DNA of 64,000 bases from Candidatus Dormiibacterota bacterium (GTDB lineage Bacteria > Chloroflexota > Limnocylindria > Limnocylindrales > CSP1-4), in NCBI GenBank assembly GCA_035631615.1, contig DASQIK010000016.1:64577-128576 (forward strand). The letters are read 5' to 3'. Below, piece by piece: positions 27,479 to 35,706 of the stretch (positions are counted from its first letter, which is position 1; every line of letters starts with the position of its first letter). Both the position numbers and the translations under genes were made by a program. The notes below the pieces were generated by a model. That model was given only the letters and a program-made list of their open reading frames with translations. It ran no database searches and was not told the origin of the DNA.

Positions 27479-29611
27479 TCACGCGTCGCGGACGGCAGGC
27501 ACGAGCACGCCCGCCAGGCCCACTGCCACCGTGATGAGCCCGAACACGCCGAGGACCGGGCCCGCCCCGAACCACTCGCCGAGCACGCCGCCGATGCCCA
27601 TAGCCAGGGTCATCGCGCCGAACACCACCGAGAAGCGGAGGCCGAGCACGCGACCCATGAGCTCCGGCGGGGTGCGCTTCTGGAGCAAGGTCTGGCTCGG
27701 GATCACGAATGCCAGGTTGCCGATCCCCGCGCCGAACGCGATTCCCAGTGCGAGCGGCAGGCTCCCGGCCAGCGGCAGGAGCGCCACGATCGCGCCGGTC
27801 GCAACATAGCCGACGATCACCATCCGCCCCAGGGCAAGCCGCGACCCGATCAGGCCGATCAGGAACCCGCCGACGAGATTGCCCGCCCCGATCGAGCCCT
27901 CCATGAACGCGAACGCCTCGGTGTCGGTGAACCCGGTGCGGTCGATCGAGTGGGCTGCGTACACCGGCGTGAGCACCAGGAAGATGCCGAGCATGAACTG
28001 GCCGGCCGTCGCCTGGAGCGTGTTCGCGAGCAGGACCTGGTCGCCGCGCAAAAAGCGCCAGCCCTCGCGCAGCTCGGTGCCGAAGCCCGACAGCCCGGCG
28101 CGGAGGCCGCGGCGCGCCTCGGTCGCCGCGTCGCCCACCGCGTCGGCGATCTGGCGGGTCACCGGCGCCACGACCACCGACGCGATCAGCAGGGCCGATG
28201 CGAAGTAGGTCACCGAGTCGGCCCAGAACGCGAGCGGCAGCTGGCTGCCGAGCAGGGCCACGAACAGGCCCGCCAGCACGTACCCGCCGATGTCCGCGAA
28301 CGTCTCGCCGACCCAGAGCGCGGAGTTGGCCGGCACGAGGTCGTCGTGCGCGACCATCCGCGGCAGGATCGCCCCCTTCGCCGGCCGGAAGAAGATCGAG
28401 ACCGTGGTCACGAGGAACACGAGCGGGTAGGCGAGGGCTAGGTTCGTGACGGCTGCGATCGGGATCAGGAGGACCAGGCCGGCGCGCAGCAGGTCGCTGA
28501 CGATCATCACCTCGCGCTGGTCCCAGCGGTCGACGAGCCCGCCGGCAATCGGCCCGAAGATCAGGTTCGGCAGCGTGGCGGTCAGGAAGACCGCACCGAC
28601 CGCGATCGGCGAGTTCGTCGCGTGGAGCACCAGGTAGGCGAGCGCGACCTGGTGGATCCGGTCGCCGAGTGCGCTGATCAGCTGCCCGGTCCACAGGGCG
28701 CTGAACGAGCTGTCGAGCGCGAGCCGCACGTATGGGTGGTGCCGGACCCGCTCGAGGATCGGCGGGACCTGCGGAAGCGCGCGCCTCCGCGTCTGCCGGA
28801 GGGTGCCCTCCGACCCGACCGAGGGGCCGCCGAGGGACAGGGGTCGCTCGAGGGCCACGGCGCTGACGAGGCTGCCGTCGTAGGCATCGAACGCGAGGGC
28901 GGTGTCGATCGCGCCCGTGTCGAGCGCGGGGAACAGCGCTCCGGTCTCGAGCATCGCGGCCGCCTCTGCCGCGGCGGCCTCCTCCGGGGAGAGCCGGAGC
29001 TGGGCGACGCGCCGCCCGAGGGCGGTCGGATCCGCGCCGCGGAGCAGGTCCGTCGGTTCGCGAACGACGATCGCGAACAGGAAGAACGCGAGTCCGGACG
29101 CGAGGAACAGGTCGCCGATGCTCGCGACGTTGCGAATGAAGGGGATCGGGATCGGGATGATGTCGCCCAACGGGCCGGCCTGGGCGAGGAAGTCGCCGGT
29201 GATCCCGCCGCTCGTCGCCGTGCCGACGATCAGGTGGAACGCCGACCCGATCTCGGTCGGCGGCAGGCCGGCGGCGACGATGCTCGGCTGCCAGACCGGC
29301 ATGTAGCCCCCGTTCGTCACGATCGCGATCGCGTTGAGCAGGATTCCGACGAAGGCGAGCGCGATGCCCGGGTGCTCGCGGTTCGACCACAACCCGATCA
29401 AAAGCAGCAGGAAGCCGCTGGCGAAGAGGGGCAGCCGCACGGCATCGGCGATGTCGTTGCCGTTCTCGATGGCGAACTCCGTGGCGTAGCGCAGCACCAG
29501 CCCGAGGAAGAGGAGCTGGACCAGGCGGAGCCGGACGTAGGCGAGATTCTCGATCCGCCCGCCGGCGAGCAGCCCGAGCGCGAGGCCCAGGATCAGGCTG
29601 ACGATCAGCAT
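27479..29611 (-). CDS. DUF5317-like membrane domain fused to an MFS transporter (EntS/MFS_3-like)
   Basis: Single uninterrupted 710-aa ORF. The N-terminal ~200 aa ('MLIVSLILGLALGLLAGGRIENLAYVRLR...NGGYMPVW') resemble DUF5317. An Ala-rich linker follows. A 12-TM MFS then starts at 'FSALWTGQLISALGDRIHQVALAYLV...GGLVDRWDQR'. Confidence 0.7.
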   Translation of the reverse strand: MLIVSLILGLALGLLAGGRIENLAYVRLRLVQLLFLGLVLRYATEFAIENGNDIADAVRLPLFASGFLLLLIGLWSNREHPGIALAFVGILLNAIAIVTNGGYMPVWQPSIVAAGLPPTEIGSAFHLIVGTATSGGITGDFLAQAGPLGDIIPIPIPFIRNVASIGDLFLASGLAFFLFAIVVREPTDLLRGADPTALGRRVAQLRLSPEEAAAAEAAAMLETGALFPALDTGAIDTALAFDAYDGSLVSAVALERPLSLGGPSVGSEGTLRQTRRRALPQVPPILERVRHHPYVRLALDSSFSALWTGQLISALGDRIHQVALAYLVLHATNSPIAVGAVFLTATLPNLIFGPIAGGLVDRWDQREVMIVSDLLRAGLVLLIPIAAVTNLALAYPLVFLVTTVSIFFRPAKGAILPRMVAHDDLVPANSALWVGETFADIGGYVLAGLFVALLGSQLPLAFWADSVTYFASALLIASVVVAPVTRQIADAVGDAATEARRGLRAGLSGFGTELREGWRFLRGDQVLLANTLQATAGQFMLGIFLVLTPVYAAHSIDRTGFTDTEAFAFMEGSIGAGNLVGGFLIGLIGSRLALGRMVIVGYVATGAIVALLPLAGSLPLALGIAFGAGIGNLAFVIPSQTLLQKRTPPELMGRVLGLRFSVVFGAMTLAMGIGGVLGEWFGAGPVLGVFGLITVAVGLAGVLVPAVRDA

Positions 29612-29868
29612 CGGGTCGTGGCTACTCGCACGTCGTTCGTCCGCGGCATGCGCGCATTGTCACGGGCGATCCGGCGCTTCGTGGGCTCGCGCCGCGTTCG
29701 GCCCCGGCGCTCTCGCTGCGACTGTCGGCGCGCCGACGTCCCCTCTGCGCCGACCCAGCGATGCCAACTGCTGCATACGCGCCGAGCGAGCGGCGGCCGA
29801 ATGCGCGACCGCGGGCGGGCCGTGTCGTTGCGCGGCGGCGGTTGCGCCGCGCATCCCGGTGGCGCGGC

Positions 29869-31266
29869 TCAGGCCAGGTCGGCTGCGGGGGACCCCGGCG
29901 CTGGGGCGTCGTGGGCACGCGCGGCGCGGGCGCCGTGCTGGCCGAGCAGCGGGATCGGTCGAAGGTCGGGCTCGCCGGTGTCCCGAACGTCGTCGGCCCA
30001 CGAGGTCTTCACGAACGCGTCGACGATCTCGGGGTCGAACTGGACGCCGGCGAACTTGCGGAGCTCGGCGAGCGCCTGCCCGGTCGACAGCGCCTTGCGG
30101 TACGGCCGGTCGGCCGTCATCGCCTCGAACGCGTCGGCGACATGGAGGATCCGCGCGAGCCTGGGGATCTCGTCGCCCATCAGTCGATCCGGGTAGCCCG
30201 AGCCGTTGTACCACTCGTGATGGTGGCGGATGACCGGCAGCTCCGGCGCGAGCCGATCCACAGGCCCGATGATCTGCGCGCCCAGCACCGGGTGGGCGTT
30301 CATCGTGATCCGCTCCTCGCGGGTCAGCTTGCCCTGCTTCAGCAGCACGTTGTCCGGCACGCCGATCTTGCCCACGTCGTGAAGCAGCCCGCCCCACTCC
30401 AGGGCCTCGAGCTCGCCCGCCGACACCCGCAGCTCACGCCCGATGTCGACCGAGATCGAGCGCACCCGCTGGCTGTGCTTGCTCGTGAACGGATCGCGCT
30501 TGTCCACCGCCTCCGCCAGCGCCCCGATCGTCTGCGTGAACATCTCCCGCATCTCGACGAATCGCTGATAAGCGACTCGGGTCGTGAAGAGAGGCAATCC
30601 GAACAAGAGCGTTGTCCACCAGCCGCCGTCCCGGAGTTCGTACATCCTCGCCATCAACCAGCCGAGCGGCGCCAACGTAAGTAGGTTGGCCCAGATGTTC
30701 GAGGTCTCGGCTCGTGTCAGGAACTCGCGTGCCGATAGACCTGTCCGGAACACAACGACCAGCGACACGAACACGAGGTTGGTTACGAAGTACGTCAAGG
30801 TCCCCAGAAGGGTCGCGACAAGCTCCTGGAATGCGTTGCCGTCCCCCCTGAAGAGCTCAATGACGACCGAACCGAAGATGACCGGAAGCACGATTGCTGC
30901 GTGGTTTGCCAAAGTCCCATACCAGGCGACCCGGCCGCGCAGTTCCCGCGCGTCGGTCGTCCCGATCAGCGCCACCCATGCCGCAGCCGCAGGTCCGCCG
31001 AGCACGGCGGCAGCCATAAGCGGAGCGGTGGAAACGGCGACTTGCACCCCGTGACTCACGCGGACCGGGAGAGCCGATGCAATCAGGGTGATCACAGTCC
31101 AGAACGCGACCCCGAGGAGGACCTCGACCACGCTCGAGGTGTTCGGATCGCCGTCGAAGGAGATCGCGATTGCAGGCTGCACAGGAATCACAAGGCTCGT
31201 GATGAGCAGCGCCGCTGTGGCCGCTCCCACGAGCCCGGTGACGTATATCGCGAGGGACCTAGGCAA
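29869..31266 (-). CDS. Membrane-anchored HD-GYP domain cyclic-di-GMP phosphodiesterase
   Basis: 'HSQRVRSISV', 'GLLHDVGKIGVPDNVLLKQGKLT' and 'HHEWYNGSGYPDRL' form an intact HD and GYP motif set. N-terminal ~230 aa contain about 7 TM helices. TTG start at 31266. Confidence 0.85.
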   Translation of the reverse strand: MPRSLAIYVTGLVGAATAALLITSLVIPVQPAIAISFDGDPNTSSVVEVLLGVAFWTVITLIASALPVRVSHGVQVAVSTAPLMAAAVLGGPAAAAWVALIGTTDARELRGRVAWYGTLANHAAIVLPVIFGSVVIELFRGDGNAFQELVATLLGTLTYFVTNLVFVSLVVVFRTGLSAREFLTRAETSNIWANLLTLAPLGWLMARMYELRDGGWWTTLLFGLPLFTTRVAYQRFVEMREMFTQTIGALAEAVDKRDPFTSKHSQRVRSISVDIGRELRVSAGELEALEWGGLLHDVGKIGVPDNVLLKQGKLTREERITMNAHPVLGAQIIGPVDRLAPELPVIRHHHEWYNGSGYPDRLMGDEIPRLARILHVADAFEAMTADRPYRKALSTGQALAELRKFAGVQFDPEIVDAFVKTSWADDVRDTGEPDLRPIPLLGQHGARAARAHDAPAPGSPAADLA

Positions 31267-31341
31267 GTCGCTTCACCGCACTCGGATCCATGGTTCCCGA
31301 ACTCTAGACCCTAACGTCCGGGATCCAATGGTCCGCCAGTA

Positions 31342-31431
31342 CTAGAAGCCCTTGAGAGTCGCCCCTCCGGCGAGTGCGATCGCGGCGACGGTGCTCAAAG
31401 TGACCGCCAGCCGCATGAGCCGGTGCTTCAT
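31342..31431 (-). CDS. Candidate 29-aa hydrophobic micro-protein (MKHRLMRLAVTLSTVAAIALAGGATLKGF)
   Basis: ATG..TAG ORF translated by hand. Only 4 of 29 codons end in A/T, which is coding-like for this genome. One predicted TM or signal-like helix. The SD-like AAGGA abuts the ATG, which is poor spacing, so translation is unproven. Confidence 0.35.
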   Translation of the reverse strand: MKHRLMRLAVTLSTVAAIALAGGATLKGF

Positions 31432-31512
31432 CCTTAGAAGCCCTTCAGAGTGTTCTCGGGAGCCACGCTCGTCCTCCTCGCGGTCCCCGTGCTCCCCTTC
31501 AGAAACACGAAA

Positions 31513-31534
31513 ACCGACCTGACTCTGGGTCGGT
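31513..31534 (-). terminator. Putative intrinsic terminator downstream of the STAND regulator gene
   Basis: The minus strand reads ACCGACC-CAGAGTCA-GGTCGGT followed by TTTCGTGTTTCT. That is a 7-bp stem, an 8-nt loop and a T-rich tail. Confidence 0.45.
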
Positions 31535-31706
31535 CGGTTGCACTACTCGCTCAGCTCCACCCTAAGTGCCCATTTCAGGTGGAGCCTCGGCGCGTCCGAG
31601 CGTTCTTAGATTGGTTCGGTAGTACGCAAGTACCACTCGAGGGCCGGACTATAGGTAGACCCAACTGAACCGGTCAATACGCATGTCTACCTATCTACAC
31701 CTAGCC

Positions 31707-34700
31707 TCAGAGGTCGCCCATGGGAGGTACATCGAGCCCGAGGTCCTTCAGGGCGCGCGAGTACTTGGCGTAAGACTCCGCGGCAGCAGCGTGGGCGCCG
31801 GCAAGCCGATAGACGCGAATCAATGCGAGCTGGATCTCTTCAGAGTCGGTCTCAACCTCGGCGGCTCTTTCCGCCAAGAGGACGCCGCGAACGAGTCGTC
31901 CTGCATCGATGTCGGCACGGATGGCTTGCTCCATGACTCGTAGGTACGACGCGTGGAGAGCATCGCGAAACGGGCCGGACCACTCCTCGTATGCGAAATC
32001 GATCGAGAACTTGCCCAGGTACGCATGGGCCAGAGCGACCACGGATAGATCGTCTGGCTCGGCAGTCGCACTTCGAATCAACTCCAAACACCGACGACTT
32101 CGTGCATGCACCAGAGCAGGGTCGATCCAGATGGTCTCTCCATCCTGTTGAACGTACCCTGGTGACAGATCCTCGCGATACTCAGGCTCAAAGACGCGGC
32201 GCAGGAAGTAGACCGTCTGATTCAGCGAATTGAGAGCCGACTGCGGATCCAGATCCGGCCAAAGGCTGTCGGCGACCTCCTCCCGAGTGGCAGTCCAATT
32301 CGATTTGGTCAGGAGCAGAGACAGCAAGGCAAGGACCTTGCGACGGACGTCCGAGCTCTCAACAACTCGGGACCCGATGGCGATCCGGACGCGTCCGAGG
32401 TCCTCAACAACCACCTTCGGCGCGAGACGTCGCGCGAGGCCTCGGCCGAGCGGGAAGCCACGACCTTCCCGCGCGGTTCGTGCGAGACCACGAAGCAGTG
32501 GAACATCAGCCAGTTCCCCGATCTCGTCGAGGAGCCTCGCTGCCGGCCACGATGCGGCGCCTGGTGTAGTGACCGCTCGTCGAATGGGCTCGCGCCATCG
32601 CCACGGCCGGCGACGGACTTCGTCACCGATGTCCGAAGTCGCCTGATCTGTTAGATCGCCGAGGCGTAGGACCACAGCCTCCGCTGCCATGCTTAGAGCG
32701 ACAGGCGCCTTCGTCGCCACTTCTGCGAGCGTCGCGGAAGGGTCTCTCGCGATGTCTGCGACCGCGGCCAGGGCCTCCGCGTACGCCTCCCAGTGGGTGG
32801 CTCCCTGACGGATCGCAAGGGCCCGCGGAACGCGGTGAATCTCTTGATCATCCGCACCCCCTAGGAGCACTTGGATCAAGCTTCCTACGAGGAGGCGCCT
32901 GAGTTCGAAAGCCGGGGTTAGGTGATGCCTGCGTGCGTCAATCCTTGCGAACGTGCGTTGCGCAGTGTCCAGGTCCCCTAGTTCCGCGGCATATAGGGCT
33001 CGAGCCAGGACAGCCCGATCGCCGATTTCCAAGTTGTCCGAGATCCGTGTCTCAAAGGACGGCAAGTGCCGGGCCGCCAAACTGGGTTGTCCGTAAAGGA
33101 GCTCGATGTCGGCGGCCTCTATGGACACTTCGAGCCGCTGGCCGGGAAGCGACAGTTTCGAGGCCAAGTCGATCTCAGATCGAGCGCCACCGATGTCTCC
33201 TAGGTGAGCGACCGCGGCTGCTCTGGCGAGCCGTGCCGATACCAATTCGATCCCGGCAGACGAGCCCGCGAGGATGGAGATTGCCTCGTCGGCGCAGGTC
33301 AAAGCGCCCTCGCCATCACCGGCGGCCAGGCGCAGCTGCGACTCGTTGCAGAGGCTGACTCCAAGAAAGTGCGCCTCGCCTTTGAGGCGATGATCGAGTT
33401 TTAGGCGGTGCAGTCCTGCAATGGCCGTTCGAAGGGAGCCATCTACGGAAGAGTCGACCGCCTCGCGGTATACCTTTGCGAGAGTGGCGATATGAGGGGA
33501 GGACGATGCCTCAAGAAGGCGACCCGCCGCGAGCGCCGCATCCACGTCGCCAGCGAGGCTCCTAGCAGAGAGCAGGTTGAGAAGCGCTAGATCCGAATCC
33601 GGATCAGTCGACCAAGCTTGCTCGGCAAGCTCCCTGCCCTCCGCGACCTCTGCACGCTGTTGGGCGAGCCGCGAACGGAGGATCAAACCCGGCGCACCGC
33701 CCAGCATCCCGCTTGGAAGATCTGATACCAGTTCTTGAGCGATGGCGTAGGCGCCGGTGGCGAGGATGTTCTCGATCGCGGCGGAGAGGACGCGACGCGC
33801 GTCGTCGGCGTGGCCGCTGGCGAGGTAGTGGCGGCCGGAGATCCGCCAGTCGACGGTTTCGGCGGCGCGCGCGATCCGCAGGTGGATCGCCCGAACGCCG
33901 TCCTCGCCGACGGATCGGGCGAGGCGGGCCTGGAGGAAGTCGCGCACGAGCGGATGCGCCCGGACGACGTGGCGCGTGTTCGGGCCCCGCTTGCCGAACA
34001 AACCCTGGCGCTCGCCGTCCTCGATCAGCGACCTCGCAGCGTCCTCATCGACCTCGGCAGCGACCGTGCCCAGGACGAGATCGACCGTCTCCAGCAGCGA
34101 CGTGCGCATCAGGAATTGCTGGAGGTCGTCTGGGAGCTCGCCCACGACCTCCTCGGCGAGGTACTCGTACAGGTGCCCCTCGGCGCCGCTCAGCGACGAG
34201 ATGAAGGCCCGAACCTGCCCCGGGTCGCGATCGTGCAGCGCGGCTCGGACGAGCTGCAACGACGCGGCCCAGCCCTCGGTGCGGCGCCGGAGCTCCGCGA
34301 GGATCGCCGGCTCGAGCCGCATCTCGTAGGTCTCGCGGAACAGCCGCTCGGTCTCGAGCACGTTGAATCGGAGGTCGTCGGTCCCGAGCTCGGCGACCTC
34401 GCCGAGCGCGCGCAGCCGCGCCAGCCGGACCGGCGGCTCGCGCCGGCTGGCGAACATGAACGACATCCGCTCCGGCCCGCGCGCCATGAGCTCGCGCAGG
34501 ATGTGGCGGACGTCCGGCGAATCGTCGACCAGGTGAACGTCATCGAACACGAGCGCGGTCGGGTCGTTGGGCAGACCTCCGAGCTCGCGAAGGAACGTGT
34601 CGAGGACCGTGTCGAGCGAGGGTGACGTCGTCGCGGTCTCACGAAGCAGCGCGGCCGTCGACGGGCCGAAGTCCGGGACGTGGACGCGCACAGCCGCGAC

Positions 34701-34949
34701 GAGGTACGCGATGAACCCGACCCAGTCGCGATCGCCGCGGTCGAGGCGAAACCACAGGACGCGGATGCGCGTTCGACGAGAGAAGTCGGCGAGCAGCGTC
34801 GTCTTGCCGTAGCCGGCCTCGGCCACCAGCAGGACGGCGCGGCGATGGATCTTGACCGACAGCCACTCGAGGAGCCGGTCGCGCGCCAGCGTCTCCTCGC
34901 GGAGCGGCGGCGCCTGGACCTTGCTGACCTGAATCGGGTACTCGGACAT
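31707..34949 (-). CDS. Large STAND/MalT-like ATPase regulator with C-terminal OmpR-type winged helix + BTAD (SARP) module
   Basis: N-terminus 'VQAPPLREETLARDRLLEWL...AVLLVAEAGYGKTTLLADF' (Walker A) and 'LVFDDVHLV' (Walker B), as in MalT/LAL regulators. Central TPR-like helical repeats. C-terminus 'REEVADSLWPDLDPQSALNSLNQTVYFLRRVF' (wHTH) followed by BTAD-like 'ALIRVYRLAGAHAAAAESYAKYSRALKDLGLDVPP'. Start moved to ATG 34949. Confidence 0.8.
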   Translation of the reverse strand: MSEYPIQVSKVQAPPLREETLARDRLLEWLSVKIHRRAVLLVAEAGYGKTTLLADFSRRTRIRVLWFRLDRGDRDWVGFIAYLVAAVRVHVPDFGPSTAALLRETATTSPSLDTVLDTFLRELGGLPNDPTALVFDDVHLVDDSPDVRHILRELMARGPERMSFMFASRREPPVRLARLRALGEVAELGTDDLRFNVLETERLFRETYEMRLEPAILAELRRRTEGWAASLQLVRAALHDRDPGQVRAFISSLSGAEGHLYEYLAEEVVGELPDDLQQFLMRTSLLETVDLVLGTVAAEVDEDAARSLIEDGERQGLFGKRGPNTRHVVRAHPLVRDFLQARLARSVGEDGVRAIHLRIARAAETVDWRISGRHYLASGHADDARRVLSAAIENILATGAYAIAQELVSDLPSGMLGGAPGLILRSRLAQQRAEVAEGRELAEQAWSTDPDSDLALLNLLSARSLAGDVDAALAAGRLLEASSSPHIATLAKVYREAVDSSVDGSLRTAIAGLHRLKLDHRLKGEAHFLGVSLCNESQLRLAAGDGEGALTCADEAISILAGSSAGIELVSARLARAAAVAHLGDIGGARSEIDLASKLSLPGQRLEVSIEAADIELLYGQPSLAARHLPSFETRISDNLEIGDRAVLARALYAAELGDLDTAQRTFARIDARRHHLTPAFELRRLLVGSLIQVLLGGADDQEIHRVPRALAIRQGATHWEAYAEALAAVADIARDPSATLAEVATKAPVALSMAAEAVVLRLGDLTDQATSDIGDEVRRRPWRWREPIRRAVTTPGAASWPAARLLDEIGELADVPLLRGLARTAREGRGFPLGRGLARRLAPKVVVEDLGRVRIAIGSRVVESSDVRRKVLALLSLLLTKSNWTATREEVADSLWPDLDPQSALNSLNQTVYFLRRVFEPEYREDLSPGYVQQDGETIWIDPALVHARSRRCLELIRSATAEPDDLSVVALAHAYLGKFSIDFAYEEWSGPFRDALHASYLRVMEQAIRADIDAGRLVRGVLLAERAAEVETDSEEIQLALIRVYRLAGAHAAAAESYAKYSRALKDLGLDVPPMGDL

Positions 34950-35255
34950 CGTCTCGAGGTCCCCTCCCGTGGACGCGAGACTGGCGACGGCGCCTGGCCG
35001 TGCGCCCTCGACGACGAGCCGAGGTCGACGGCGCGGCGGACGCACGGTTGCGGCCCGGTCGGGCGTGTGCGTATCTGGGCGAATTGGGCTGGGCTGGGCA
35101 CGCTCGCCGGGCCGGTCGAGCGGCGCGAACGATAGGGAGGCGTCGCGGCGCGTGTCAACGCTGGCCAGTGGGCGGCTGGGCATGCGTCGCATCTTGGCGA
35201 CGCTGGCTCACCGGCCGATTACCGACCGGTGGACGGAGTGTGGATAGGTTGGGCG

Positions 35256-35459
35256 TCAGCCCTCGTACTCGAACCCGATCTTGAGGTCGACCCGGTACTC
35301 GACGATCTCGCCGTCCTCGACGATGGCGCTCGACTTCACGACCTCGACCGTCTTGATGTTGCGGACGGTTCTCGACGCGGTCGCGACCGCCTGCCGGGCC
35401 GCGTCGCTCCACGACTTCGGGCTCGTCCCGACCATCTCCCGAACGATGATCACGCCCAT
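35256..35459 (-). CDS. Dodecin family flavin-binding protein
   Basis: 67 aa. 'VIIVREMVGTSPKSWSDAARQAVATASRTVRNIKTVEVV...VEDGEIVEYRVDLKIGF' matches the dodecin fold pattern and size. Confidence 0.7.
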   Translation of the reverse strand: MGVIIVREMVGTSPKSWSDAARQAVATASRTVRNIKTVEVVKSSAIVEDGEIVEYRVDLKIGFEYEG

Positions 35460-35706
35460 CTCACGCTCCTTCGACTGGCGTTGCCTTCCACGCCGTCAGT
35501 CTAGTCGCGAGGGCTGGCTGGTCTCCTCGGGCAGGAGCGGTCGCAACGCGAACGCTCCTGCCGATCGCGGTGCCGGGACGCACCGCCGAGCCCGGCGGGC
35601 CGCGCGAGTTGGGTCGGACCGCTTGACGCGGTGCGTATTCTCGCGGCCTGAGTTCCGAGCGGGAGCGGAACCGGATCGTACGGAGCCTCATCGGAGGACG
35701 GACACG

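Follow-up and report, generated by a model that had tools for sequence, protein, structure and literature searches.

A lower-GC island of 3.18 kb was found in a window of DNA (the whole stretch analysed, 64,000 nucleotides) from an uncultured Chloroflexota bacterium of the Limnocylindrales, whose genome is a metagenome-assembled genome (MAG) of 2.63 Mb in 89 contigs with a guanine-plus-cytosine (GC) content of 0.708. The island occupies positions 30561..33740 of the window, with no strand assigned, and both of its ends lie inside genes read from the minus strand, one coding for a MalT-type STAND regulator and the other for an HD-GYP protein that begins with a MASE9 membrane sensor. The island is read here, with a probability of roughly 0.72, as one allele of an ancient, multi-allelic and hypervariable exchangeable cassette of ~3.2 kb with permanently lower GC. 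The conserved ATPase half of the STAND gene and the conserved catalytic half of the HD-GYP gene act as homology arms, and recombination swaps the block, or a sub-module of it, in frame. Because recombination takes place in the arms, near-identical genomes carry very different cassettes.

The island was delimited by change points in GC at third codon positions (GC3), by the GC profile, by its genome-wide rank and by the breakpoints seen in relatives. Its GC was 0.625 compared to 0.708 for the remaining window. In 300-nt sliding windows the GC was 0.58-0.66 over about 30500-33650 and 0.69-0.78 on both sides, and the lowest four of the 1-kb bins of the window spanned 30001-34000 (GC 0.617-0.659). 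Genome-wide, the 3-kb window on the island (GC 0.626) stood at approximately -3.9 standard deviations, in the lowest ~0.7% of 4781 windows (standard deviation 0.021). The drop lay mostly at third codon positions, GC1 and GC2 of the STAND gene remaining steady near 0.75 and 0.5, respectively. Maximum-likelihood change points placed a fall in STAND GC3 from 0.918 to 0.662 at window position 33740, which is codon 403 of the 1080-codon form, and a rise in HD-GYP GC3 from 0.770 to 0.935 at position 30561, codon 235. A total of 677 of the 1080 STAND codons (63%) are in the low-GC zone. The STAND step was the strongest among ~494 long open reading frames (ORFs) of the genome that was not a frame artefact; the genome-wide change-point scan, made on stop-to-stop ORFs, included false wrong-frame 5′ extensions, of which the filtered version still had some (SufB), and these were set aside. 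An earlier reading of this DNA from its letters alone (hereafter the sequence-only reading) had noticed the island from five hand counts of 60-nt lines (34, 34 and 35 G+C inside; 42 and 45 outside), all exact on recount, and had set its boundaries at 30600 and 33650, no more than ~90 nt from the computed ones. The checks that it proposed on sliding-window GC and GC3 and on tetranucleotide signature agreed with it, since the shift was significant (z 9.5 for STAND and 5.0 for HD-GYP, compared to a largest |z| of 4.2 in 500 codon shuffles) and the tetranucleotide distance between island and genome was in the top 0.64% of windows.

Exchange of the block was observed directly in related loci from Limnocylindrales MAGs and metagenomes, 80 further loci having been gathered from the metagenomes by their riboswitch pattern. 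Loci L034 and L035, which come from two different samples, were at least 99% identical in nucleotide sequence across a left flank of 3.6 kb that extends from dnaB into the STAND gene as far as codon ~440, after which identity dropped abruptly to 43-70% for ~3.0 kb before rising to 97-100% from HD-GYP codon ~236. The breakpoints, at STAND amino acid (aa) ~525-540 (STAND residues are numbered from the full open frame, in which M82 is the probable start) and HD-GYP codon ~236, coincide with the GC steps, and the left breakpoint was the same in the pair L037/L036. In the pairs L081/L089, L049/L060, L072/L116 and L073/L110, nucleotide identity was 98.5%, 96.6%, 95% and 94% in the catalytic half compared to 61%, 62%, 57% and 63% in the MASE9 half, respectively, and the first three of these pairs also had long near-identical downstream flanks. 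The reverse case was found in L064/L084, in which the cassette was 94% identical and the N-terminal flank 71-88%. At the protein level, the STAND N halves of P0005 and P0017 were 0.99 identical and those of P0006 and P0021 were 0.98 identical, while P0005 and P0006 shared one C-half class and P0017 and P0021 another, so that all four combinations of flank and cassette exist. The STAND solenoid (aa 545-905) had a median pairwise aa identity of 0.30 and fell into 34 clusters among 38 sequences at 60% identity, compared to 3 clusters for the STAND N half and 1 for the HD-GYP catalytic half (two at 70%), whose median pairwise identity was 0.81 among 55 sequences. These findings show a multi-allelic block with its ends inside genes and conserved flanks around it, in which one kind of flank can carry different alleles and a given allele can occur on different flanks.

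Separate phylogenies of the two halves of each gene, a check put forward by the sequence-only reading, came out for the swap in the HD-GYP gene and divided in the STAND gene. In approximately unbiased (AU) tests on a 10-taxon set, the MASE9 half rejected every other tree and the other segments rejected the MASE9 tree (p <= 1e-4). When the recombinants L015 and L020 were left out, the MASE9 data still rejected the flank tree (AU p = 3e-4), because the window's MASE9 half does not group as sister to the MASE9 half of the closest relative. The block therefore consists of at least two units joined at a conserved riboswitch, and the window's own lineage carries a trace of exchange in the unit made of peptides and MASE9; the two units are the regulator C half and the peptides with MASE9. 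The STAND C half rejected the tree of the N half alone (p = 3e-5) and accepted the conserved-flank tree (p = 0.23), and this acceptance is one of several points that weigh against the cassette reading. For the window's genome, no counterpart was found that combines near-identical flanks with another cassette; its nearest relatives have 84-89% nucleotide identity in the STAND N half. All the mosaics come from metagenome assemblies, in which chimeric joins in conserved stretches are possible, and L034/L035 is the sole pair in which both flanks are seen, with ~120 nt of the right one. Recombination is not fully blocked inside the block, as the riboswitch splits two sub-modules with different histories. 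Close triplets were too few to polarise substitutions, with two moderately diverged cassette pairs and two that were at least 99.8% identical. The swap is accordingly an observation in relatives, and for the window's genome, apart from the conflict of the MASE9 tree, we infer it.

Contig ends were also examined (G002:C21, G003:C436, G023:C48, L026, L029 and the metagenome loci L038-L117). They gathered where conserved and variable sequence meet: slightly beyond the right step (where one 250-nt bin held 12 contigs), at the left step and in the conserved centre. The positions were STAND aa 433-486, the spacer between the two genes and, further on, a zone 1.0-1.25 kb downstream of the riboswitch. 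Such clustering would arise from several alleles with shared flanks in a single sample, and is suggestive. The chance that the island is an assembly or binning artefact, a chimeric contig of two populations with different GC, is negligible. The genome is indeed a MAG of 89 contigs, but the step recurs in dozens of assemblies made independently, among them near-complete MAGs in 6 and 10 contigs, and neither the reading frames nor the domains are interrupted.

The compositional step is old. On the synteny check proposed by the sequence-only reading, ten congeneric loci keep the order of STAND gene, ~450-nt spacer and HD-GYP gene, and all ten have the same GC3 step in the same place. Among the wider orthologues, GC3 was lower in the STAND C half in 37 of 38 and in the MASE9 half in 55 of 55. 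Island GC3 was 0.69 ± 0.04 (STAND) and 0.72 ± 0.04 (HD-GYP) across orthologues and was barely tied to flank GC3 (r = 0.38 and 0.18, respectively). Between this genome and its closest relative, L013, fourfold-site identity was 0.32 in the STAND C half, approximately the value expected at saturation for that composition, compared to 0.59-0.74 in the flanks. Such divergence represents ample time to ameliorate, and the composition of the island is therefore an equilibrium and not a leftover. The low GC is a lasting trait shared by all alleles, whatever the lineage, and the cassette is long-lived and not a one-off foreign import.

These data bear on the proposal of the sequence-only reading that a horizontally acquired segment had been recombined in frame into both genes as a domain swap. 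In-frame exchange with ends inside both genes was upheld; a foreign lower-GC donor and a recent acquisition were not, as the same low GC3 is found in nearly every orthologue and fourfold sites are saturated. A recent import from such a donor, not yet ameliorated, is extremely unlikely even though it would explain why the anomaly covers GC, GC3 and tetranucleotides, why its boundaries lie inside genes and why the window's MASE9 half is not sister to that of the closest relative. Against it stand the shared step, the time available for amelioration and the homologues themselves, none of which is a closer one from a lower-GC lineage (best whole-protein match 77%, all matches having the same architecture). 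A search for bounding repeats over 29500-35500 gave only chance-level short repeats and the repeat formed by the tails of two micro-ORFs, and no gene of a mobile element was noticed when the surrounding ORFs and called genes were examined.

Two other kinds of element were considered. The island does not have the make-up of a classical genomic island or mobile element (integrase, transposase, tRNA target or flanking repeats), having no bounding repeats and ordinary neighbours, which are dnaB, a dodecin gene and a DUF5317-MFS gene. A target of a diversity-generating retroelement was likewise rejected, as there was no long direct repeat pair and no reverse transcriptase among the neighbours, and the variable region is 3 kb long and differs at all base types.

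The low GC3 follows the region and not the conservation of residues. In the ten taxa, mean GC3 at invariant columns was 0.71 inside the island compared to 0.87 in the STAND N half, and the most variable N-half columns had a GC3 of 0.82 (0.95 in the window's genome). The same pattern held for the HD-GYP gene and both neighbouring genes, indicating that the effect is regional. The alternative that the sequence-only reading had set beside the swap, different selective constraints, fails in its simple form on these figures, since invariant codons of the island are lower in GC3 than variable codons of the flank. Within the island, invariant codons were just as poor in GC3 as variable ones. Translational accuracy, or any residue-level constraint, as the cause of the low GC3 is ruled out by the same dependence on region. 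A purely vertical history, in which fast input domains under relaxed or diversifying selection would lose GC3 through weaker codon selection with no exchange, is very unlikely. It would account for the fast evolution of the island (aa identity 0.33-0.6 compared to 0.75-0.95 in the flanks) and for the congruence of the STAND C half with the flanks in the ten taxa. However, GC3 does not track conservation, and the two halves of a gene share one mRNA, which leaves no room for expression-linked codon selection to differ between them; moreover, flanks that are at least 99% identical around cassettes that are 43-70% identical cannot arise vertically, and congruence of the MASE9 half is rejected by the AU test.

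The low GC might instead be selected at the DNA or RNA level, for a nucleoid-associated silencer, for strand opening or for slower translation, with allele exchange being incidental. The effect is regional and centred on a regulatory spacer with a GC of 0.57-0.61 in all loci, and it is constant across alleles and hosts, as this explanation would predict. Nevertheless it is unlikely, because a span of 3.2 kb is far beyond the needs of a promoter region and because the steps match the breakpoints and the limits of hypervariability, not regulatory features. In addition, the other marked low-GC islands of the same genome are unrelated, strain-variable loci: glycosyltransferases and an NAD-dependent epimerase at C16:43000-52000, a type I restriction-modification (R-M) methylase (HsdM) at C3:46000-59000 and TadE-like pilus proteins at C18:37500-41500. 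These are typical strain-variable loci, so they fit the cassette pattern.

For the exchangeable cassette, the most economical cause of the low GC would be the block's own population genetics. Alleles that are 45-65% identical would be unable to form heteroduplex, so that GC-biased gene conversion would be largely off inside the block and ongoing in the flanks. Recurrent selection on the block would cause linkage interference and make weak selection on synonymous sites less effective. The force that raises GC3 to ~0.9 elsewhere, whether GC-biased gene conversion, selection for G/C-ending codons or both, would then be weak in the block, and AT-biased mutation would hold island GC3 near 0.65-0.72. 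In most bacteria, recombining genes reportedly have higher GC3. The cassette carries the solenoid and DNA-binding end of the STAND protein, the operon promoter, the riboswitch, the terminator, two micro-ORFs and MASE9. Inherited together in this way, these parts resemble a specificity module whose input domains, peptides and operator would move as a set.

The STAND regulator (31707..34949, minus strand), with a C-terminal winged helix-turn-helix (wHTH) and BTAD module, was assigned in its 1080-aa form starting at M82 from Pfam, homologue length, an AlphaFold2 (AF2) model and Foldseek. The open frame extends up to 35192. Translation probably starts at M82 and the first 81 codons (34950-35192, minus strand) are probably untranslated, because many homologues start at the equivalent of M82, the AF2 confidence score (predicted local distance difference test, pLDDT) was <35 for residues 1-83 and GC2 there was atypically high (0.65-0.68). 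A length of ~1080 aa is also that of many homologues, which cover 93% of the query. The source's own gene call (994 aa) begins further in and would lose the Walker A motif. Pfam matches were AAA_16 at aa 105-241 (30.4 bits, just below the 32.6 cut-off, with the Walker A motif GYGKTT present), Trans_reg_C at 950-1004 (25.3 bits, borderline to the cut-off of 26.2) and BTAD at 1057-1154 (27.4 bits compared to 22.1).

The conserved, high-GC3 half of the regulator (33741..34949, minus strand; aa 82-485; GC3 0.92) contains the nucleotide-binding, helical and winged-helix domains, the arm helix and the first solenoid helices, with secondary structure taken from the AF2 model, and is 92-96% identical in aa sequence to the nearest relatives. 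The variable, low-GC3 part (31707..33740, minus strand; GC3 0.66) contains most of a TPR-like alpha-solenoid, the wHTH (~917-1030) and the BTAD (~1031-1150), and its pLDDT was mostly >90. In the model the alpha-solenoid spans aa ~449-906, its first helices lying inside the conserved half. The best Foldseek match was MalT (8bob_C, E 2e-9). On this evidence, the protein belongs to the MalT clade, having a P-loop NTPase, helical and winged-helix domains, an arm and a superhelical repeat sensor. A SARP-type module, wHTH followed by BTAD, was found, and the wHTH and the helical bundle are visible in the AF2 model. Its placement is not the N-terminal one of AfsR, as the order here is NTPase, solenoid, wHTH and BTAD; in the homologues listed the order was judged to be the same from length, coverage and Pfam families, which are given unordered. 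In L022 (G005:C11), a near-complete MAG, the STAND orthologue was split over two frames (query aa 4-886 and 884-1161), which is either a frameshift or a sequencing error inside the variable half.

The HD-GYP gene (29869-31266, minus strand) has Pfam matches to MASE9 at aa 48-229 and HD_5 at aa 250-414. Its seven-helix MASE9 membrane sensor half (aa 1-235; 30562..31266, minus strand) is identified by Pfam, by its low GC3 of 0.77 and by the conflict of its tree with the flanks. MASE9 (PF20972), which has been described elsewhere (bioRxiv 10.1101/2021.11.05.467447), scored 32.9 bits compared to a cut-off of 24.3 and lies N-terminal to HD-GYP, as befits a member of this family. The catalytic half (aa 236-465; 29869..30561, minus strand) is conserved (HD_5 E 4e-42, GC3 0.94), and the HD and GYP motifs that define the class are visible as LLHDVGK and GSGYPDRL. 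A DUF5317-MFS fusion gene follows the HD-GYP gene (27479-29611, minus strand; 11202-13319 in L037) in relatives with contigs long enough, and may belong to the same riboswitch-controlled operon.

The spacer between the STAND and HD-GYP genes is a densely conserved leader of 440 nt. A sigma-70-type promoter, TTGACC-18-TATAGT (31648..31677, minus strand), was found by a promoter scan with 10 of 12 matches and is kept in 14 aligned spacers. An inverted repeat recovered by spacer alignment (31651-31694, minus strand), with arms ATAGGTAG (31687-31694) and CTACCTAT (31651-31658), lies around the promoter, bracketing the -35 box and overlapping the -10 box, and is kept in each of the 14 spacers aligned. 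This repeat is a candidate operator that the STAND wHTH domain might bind. Spacer alignment and folding also revealed a conserved palindrome, (T/G)AGTAC-N4-GTACTA (31619..31634, minus strand), that forms a hairpin in the RNA fold. Downstream of it is a cyclic di-GMP (c-di-GMP)-II riboswitch aptamer (31523..31606, minus strand) matching Rfam RF01786 over model positions 1-84 of 84 (62.5 bits compared to a gathering score of 53.5, E 1e-13), which is ~93-99% conserved between cassettes that are otherwise divergent. Its expression platform is an intrinsic terminator (31512..31535, minus strand; terminator scan and fold) whose 5′ arm overlaps the 3′ end of the aptamer. The sequence-only reading had listed the contents of the island correctly, with the terminator among them, and had not recognised it as part of the riboswitch. 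Through the riboswitch, a high c-di-GMP level probably activates the operon of the peptides and the HD-GYP protein; as the latter is a phosphodiesterase encoded downstream, negative feedback on c-di-GMP is suggested.

Between the terminator and the HD-GYP gene are two micro-ORFs. The first (31434..31466, minus strand) has 10 codons with a GTG start, encodes MAPENTLKGF and has a GAGGAGG box 6 nt upstream. The second (31342..31431, minus strand) has 29 codons and encodes MKHRLMRLAVTLSTVAAIALAGGATLKGF; this peptide resembles a signal or anchor sequence and ends, like the first, in TLKGF. Both were found by a parser in 85 of the 94 loci examined, and the gene calls of three metagenome contigs include the second. 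The two peptides had identical C-terminal pentapeptides in 24 of 79 distinct loci, with 12 different tails (TLKGF, SLKGF, TVKGF, SLKGW, SLKGY, TLKPW, TLKPY, TLKPF, SVKGW, SAKGW, SIKGF and AVKPF). In these loci there were 48 synonymous changes between the two copies, including serine codons AGC versus TCN, which indicates that the match is kept at the peptide level and is not a DNA repeat or a recent gene conversion. Both micro-ORFs are thus predicted to be translated and selected as peptides. In L034 and L035, which have identical flanks, the tail was KGF on both ORFs in one and KPW on both ORFs in the other. Two conserved micro-ORFs and two sensor domains lie within the block and the tails vary with the allele, an association to be expected from physical linkage by itself. 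For MASE9, binding of the ligand within the membrane has been proposed (bioRxiv 10.1101/2021.11.05.467447). A small membrane peptide would fit as a partner of MASE9 and offers a lead.

Comparable blocks are known from agr and comQXP. The hypervariable region of agr in staphylococci reportedly comprises the 3′ part of agrB, agrD and the 5′ sensor half of agrC. Like the cassette, it is a contiguous multi-allelic block with both ends inside genes, its alleles are shuffled among related lineages, and a small peptide gene and a membrane sensor half lie inside it while the conserved catalytic half lies outside. Unlike agr, the cassette has a STAND/SARP-type regulator in place of AgrB, HD-GYP in place of the histidine kinase, an internal c-di-GMP-II riboswitch and two peptides with matching tails. 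A literature search on the GC content of the agr region returned nothing relevant. The comQXP polymorphism (PMC6334282) is likewise a multi-allelic block with ends inside genes, holding both a peptide gene and a receptor's sensor half. It shares with the cassette a hypervariable block, a peptide gene in mid-block, the sensor end of a receptor at one edge and diverse alleles that coexist in soil at small scale, but the cassette is without an isoprenyl transferase and its receptor is not a kinase. In its pattern the cassette resembles agr and comQXP; it belongs to neither family, because none of the proteins are related.

The regulator itself shares with MalT/LAL-type STAND activators (MalT 8bob) the N-terminal P-loop NTPase, the helical and winged-helix domains, the arm and the TPR-like superhelix, but ends in an OmpR-type wHTH and BTAD, a SARP module, and not in a LuxR-type HTH. 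In canonical SARPs such as AfsR the wHTH-BTAD module is at the N-terminus, whereas in the cassette regulator it is at the opposite, C-terminal end. Riboswitches of the c-di-GMP-II class have reportedly been described in other bacteria, and those of C. difficile are ON switches. As in known c-di-GMP-II operons, a full-length aptamer is followed by an intrinsic terminator that overlaps its 3′ end; unlike them, the host here is a member of the Chloroflexota, the cargo is two micro-ORFs and then a c-di-GMP phosphodiesterase, and the riboswitch forms a conserved centre surrounded by hypervariable sequence. Polymorphic toxin modules (CdiA-CT/CdiI, Rhs) and replacement flexible islands (O-antigen or glycosylation loci, type I R-M specificity) also have an in-frame boundary inside a gene, a GC below that of the conserved part, exchange via conserved flanks and many alleles in a population. 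The cassette differs from them in having no toxin/immunity pair and no surface polysaccharide, its variable parts being the signal-input domains of regulators.

A further reading, possible but doubtful, is that the cassette is an allele-specific peptide recognition module, similar to pherotype or kin recognition, by which the turnover of c-di-GMP is gated in Chloroflexota. When c-di-GMP is high, the riboswitch would allow expression of the two peptides, which end in the same pentapeptide. The shorter one, of 10 residues, would stay in the cytoplasm and be read by the hypervariable TPR-like solenoid of the STAND protein, and the 29-residue peptide would be membrane-anchored or secreted and be read by MASE9 of the HD-GYP enzyme. 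As peptides, both sensors, the DNA-binding domain and the operator would co-travel, each allele would be a private channel, and negative frequency-dependent selection would keep many alleles.

An intragenic GC3 step is a possible cheap flag, read from sequence only, for an exchangeable allele cassette, and need not mean import or mis-assembly. That the step persists at compositional equilibrium is not predicted by the classical view of amelioration. The locus also provides a clean natural case in which base composition differs between the halves of one mRNA independently of residue conservation, so that translational selection is excluded and regional forces remain, namely recombination-linked GC bias, interference or selection at the DNA level. 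Limnocylindria are abundant in soil and uncultured, and we know of no cell-cell signalling system in them. The block shows which components of an unstudied circuit are inherited together, and so points to the site of its specificity; the circuit combines a c-di-GMP-II riboswitch and twin micropeptides with a MalT-like regulator that ends in a SARP module and with a MASE9-HD-GYP enzyme.

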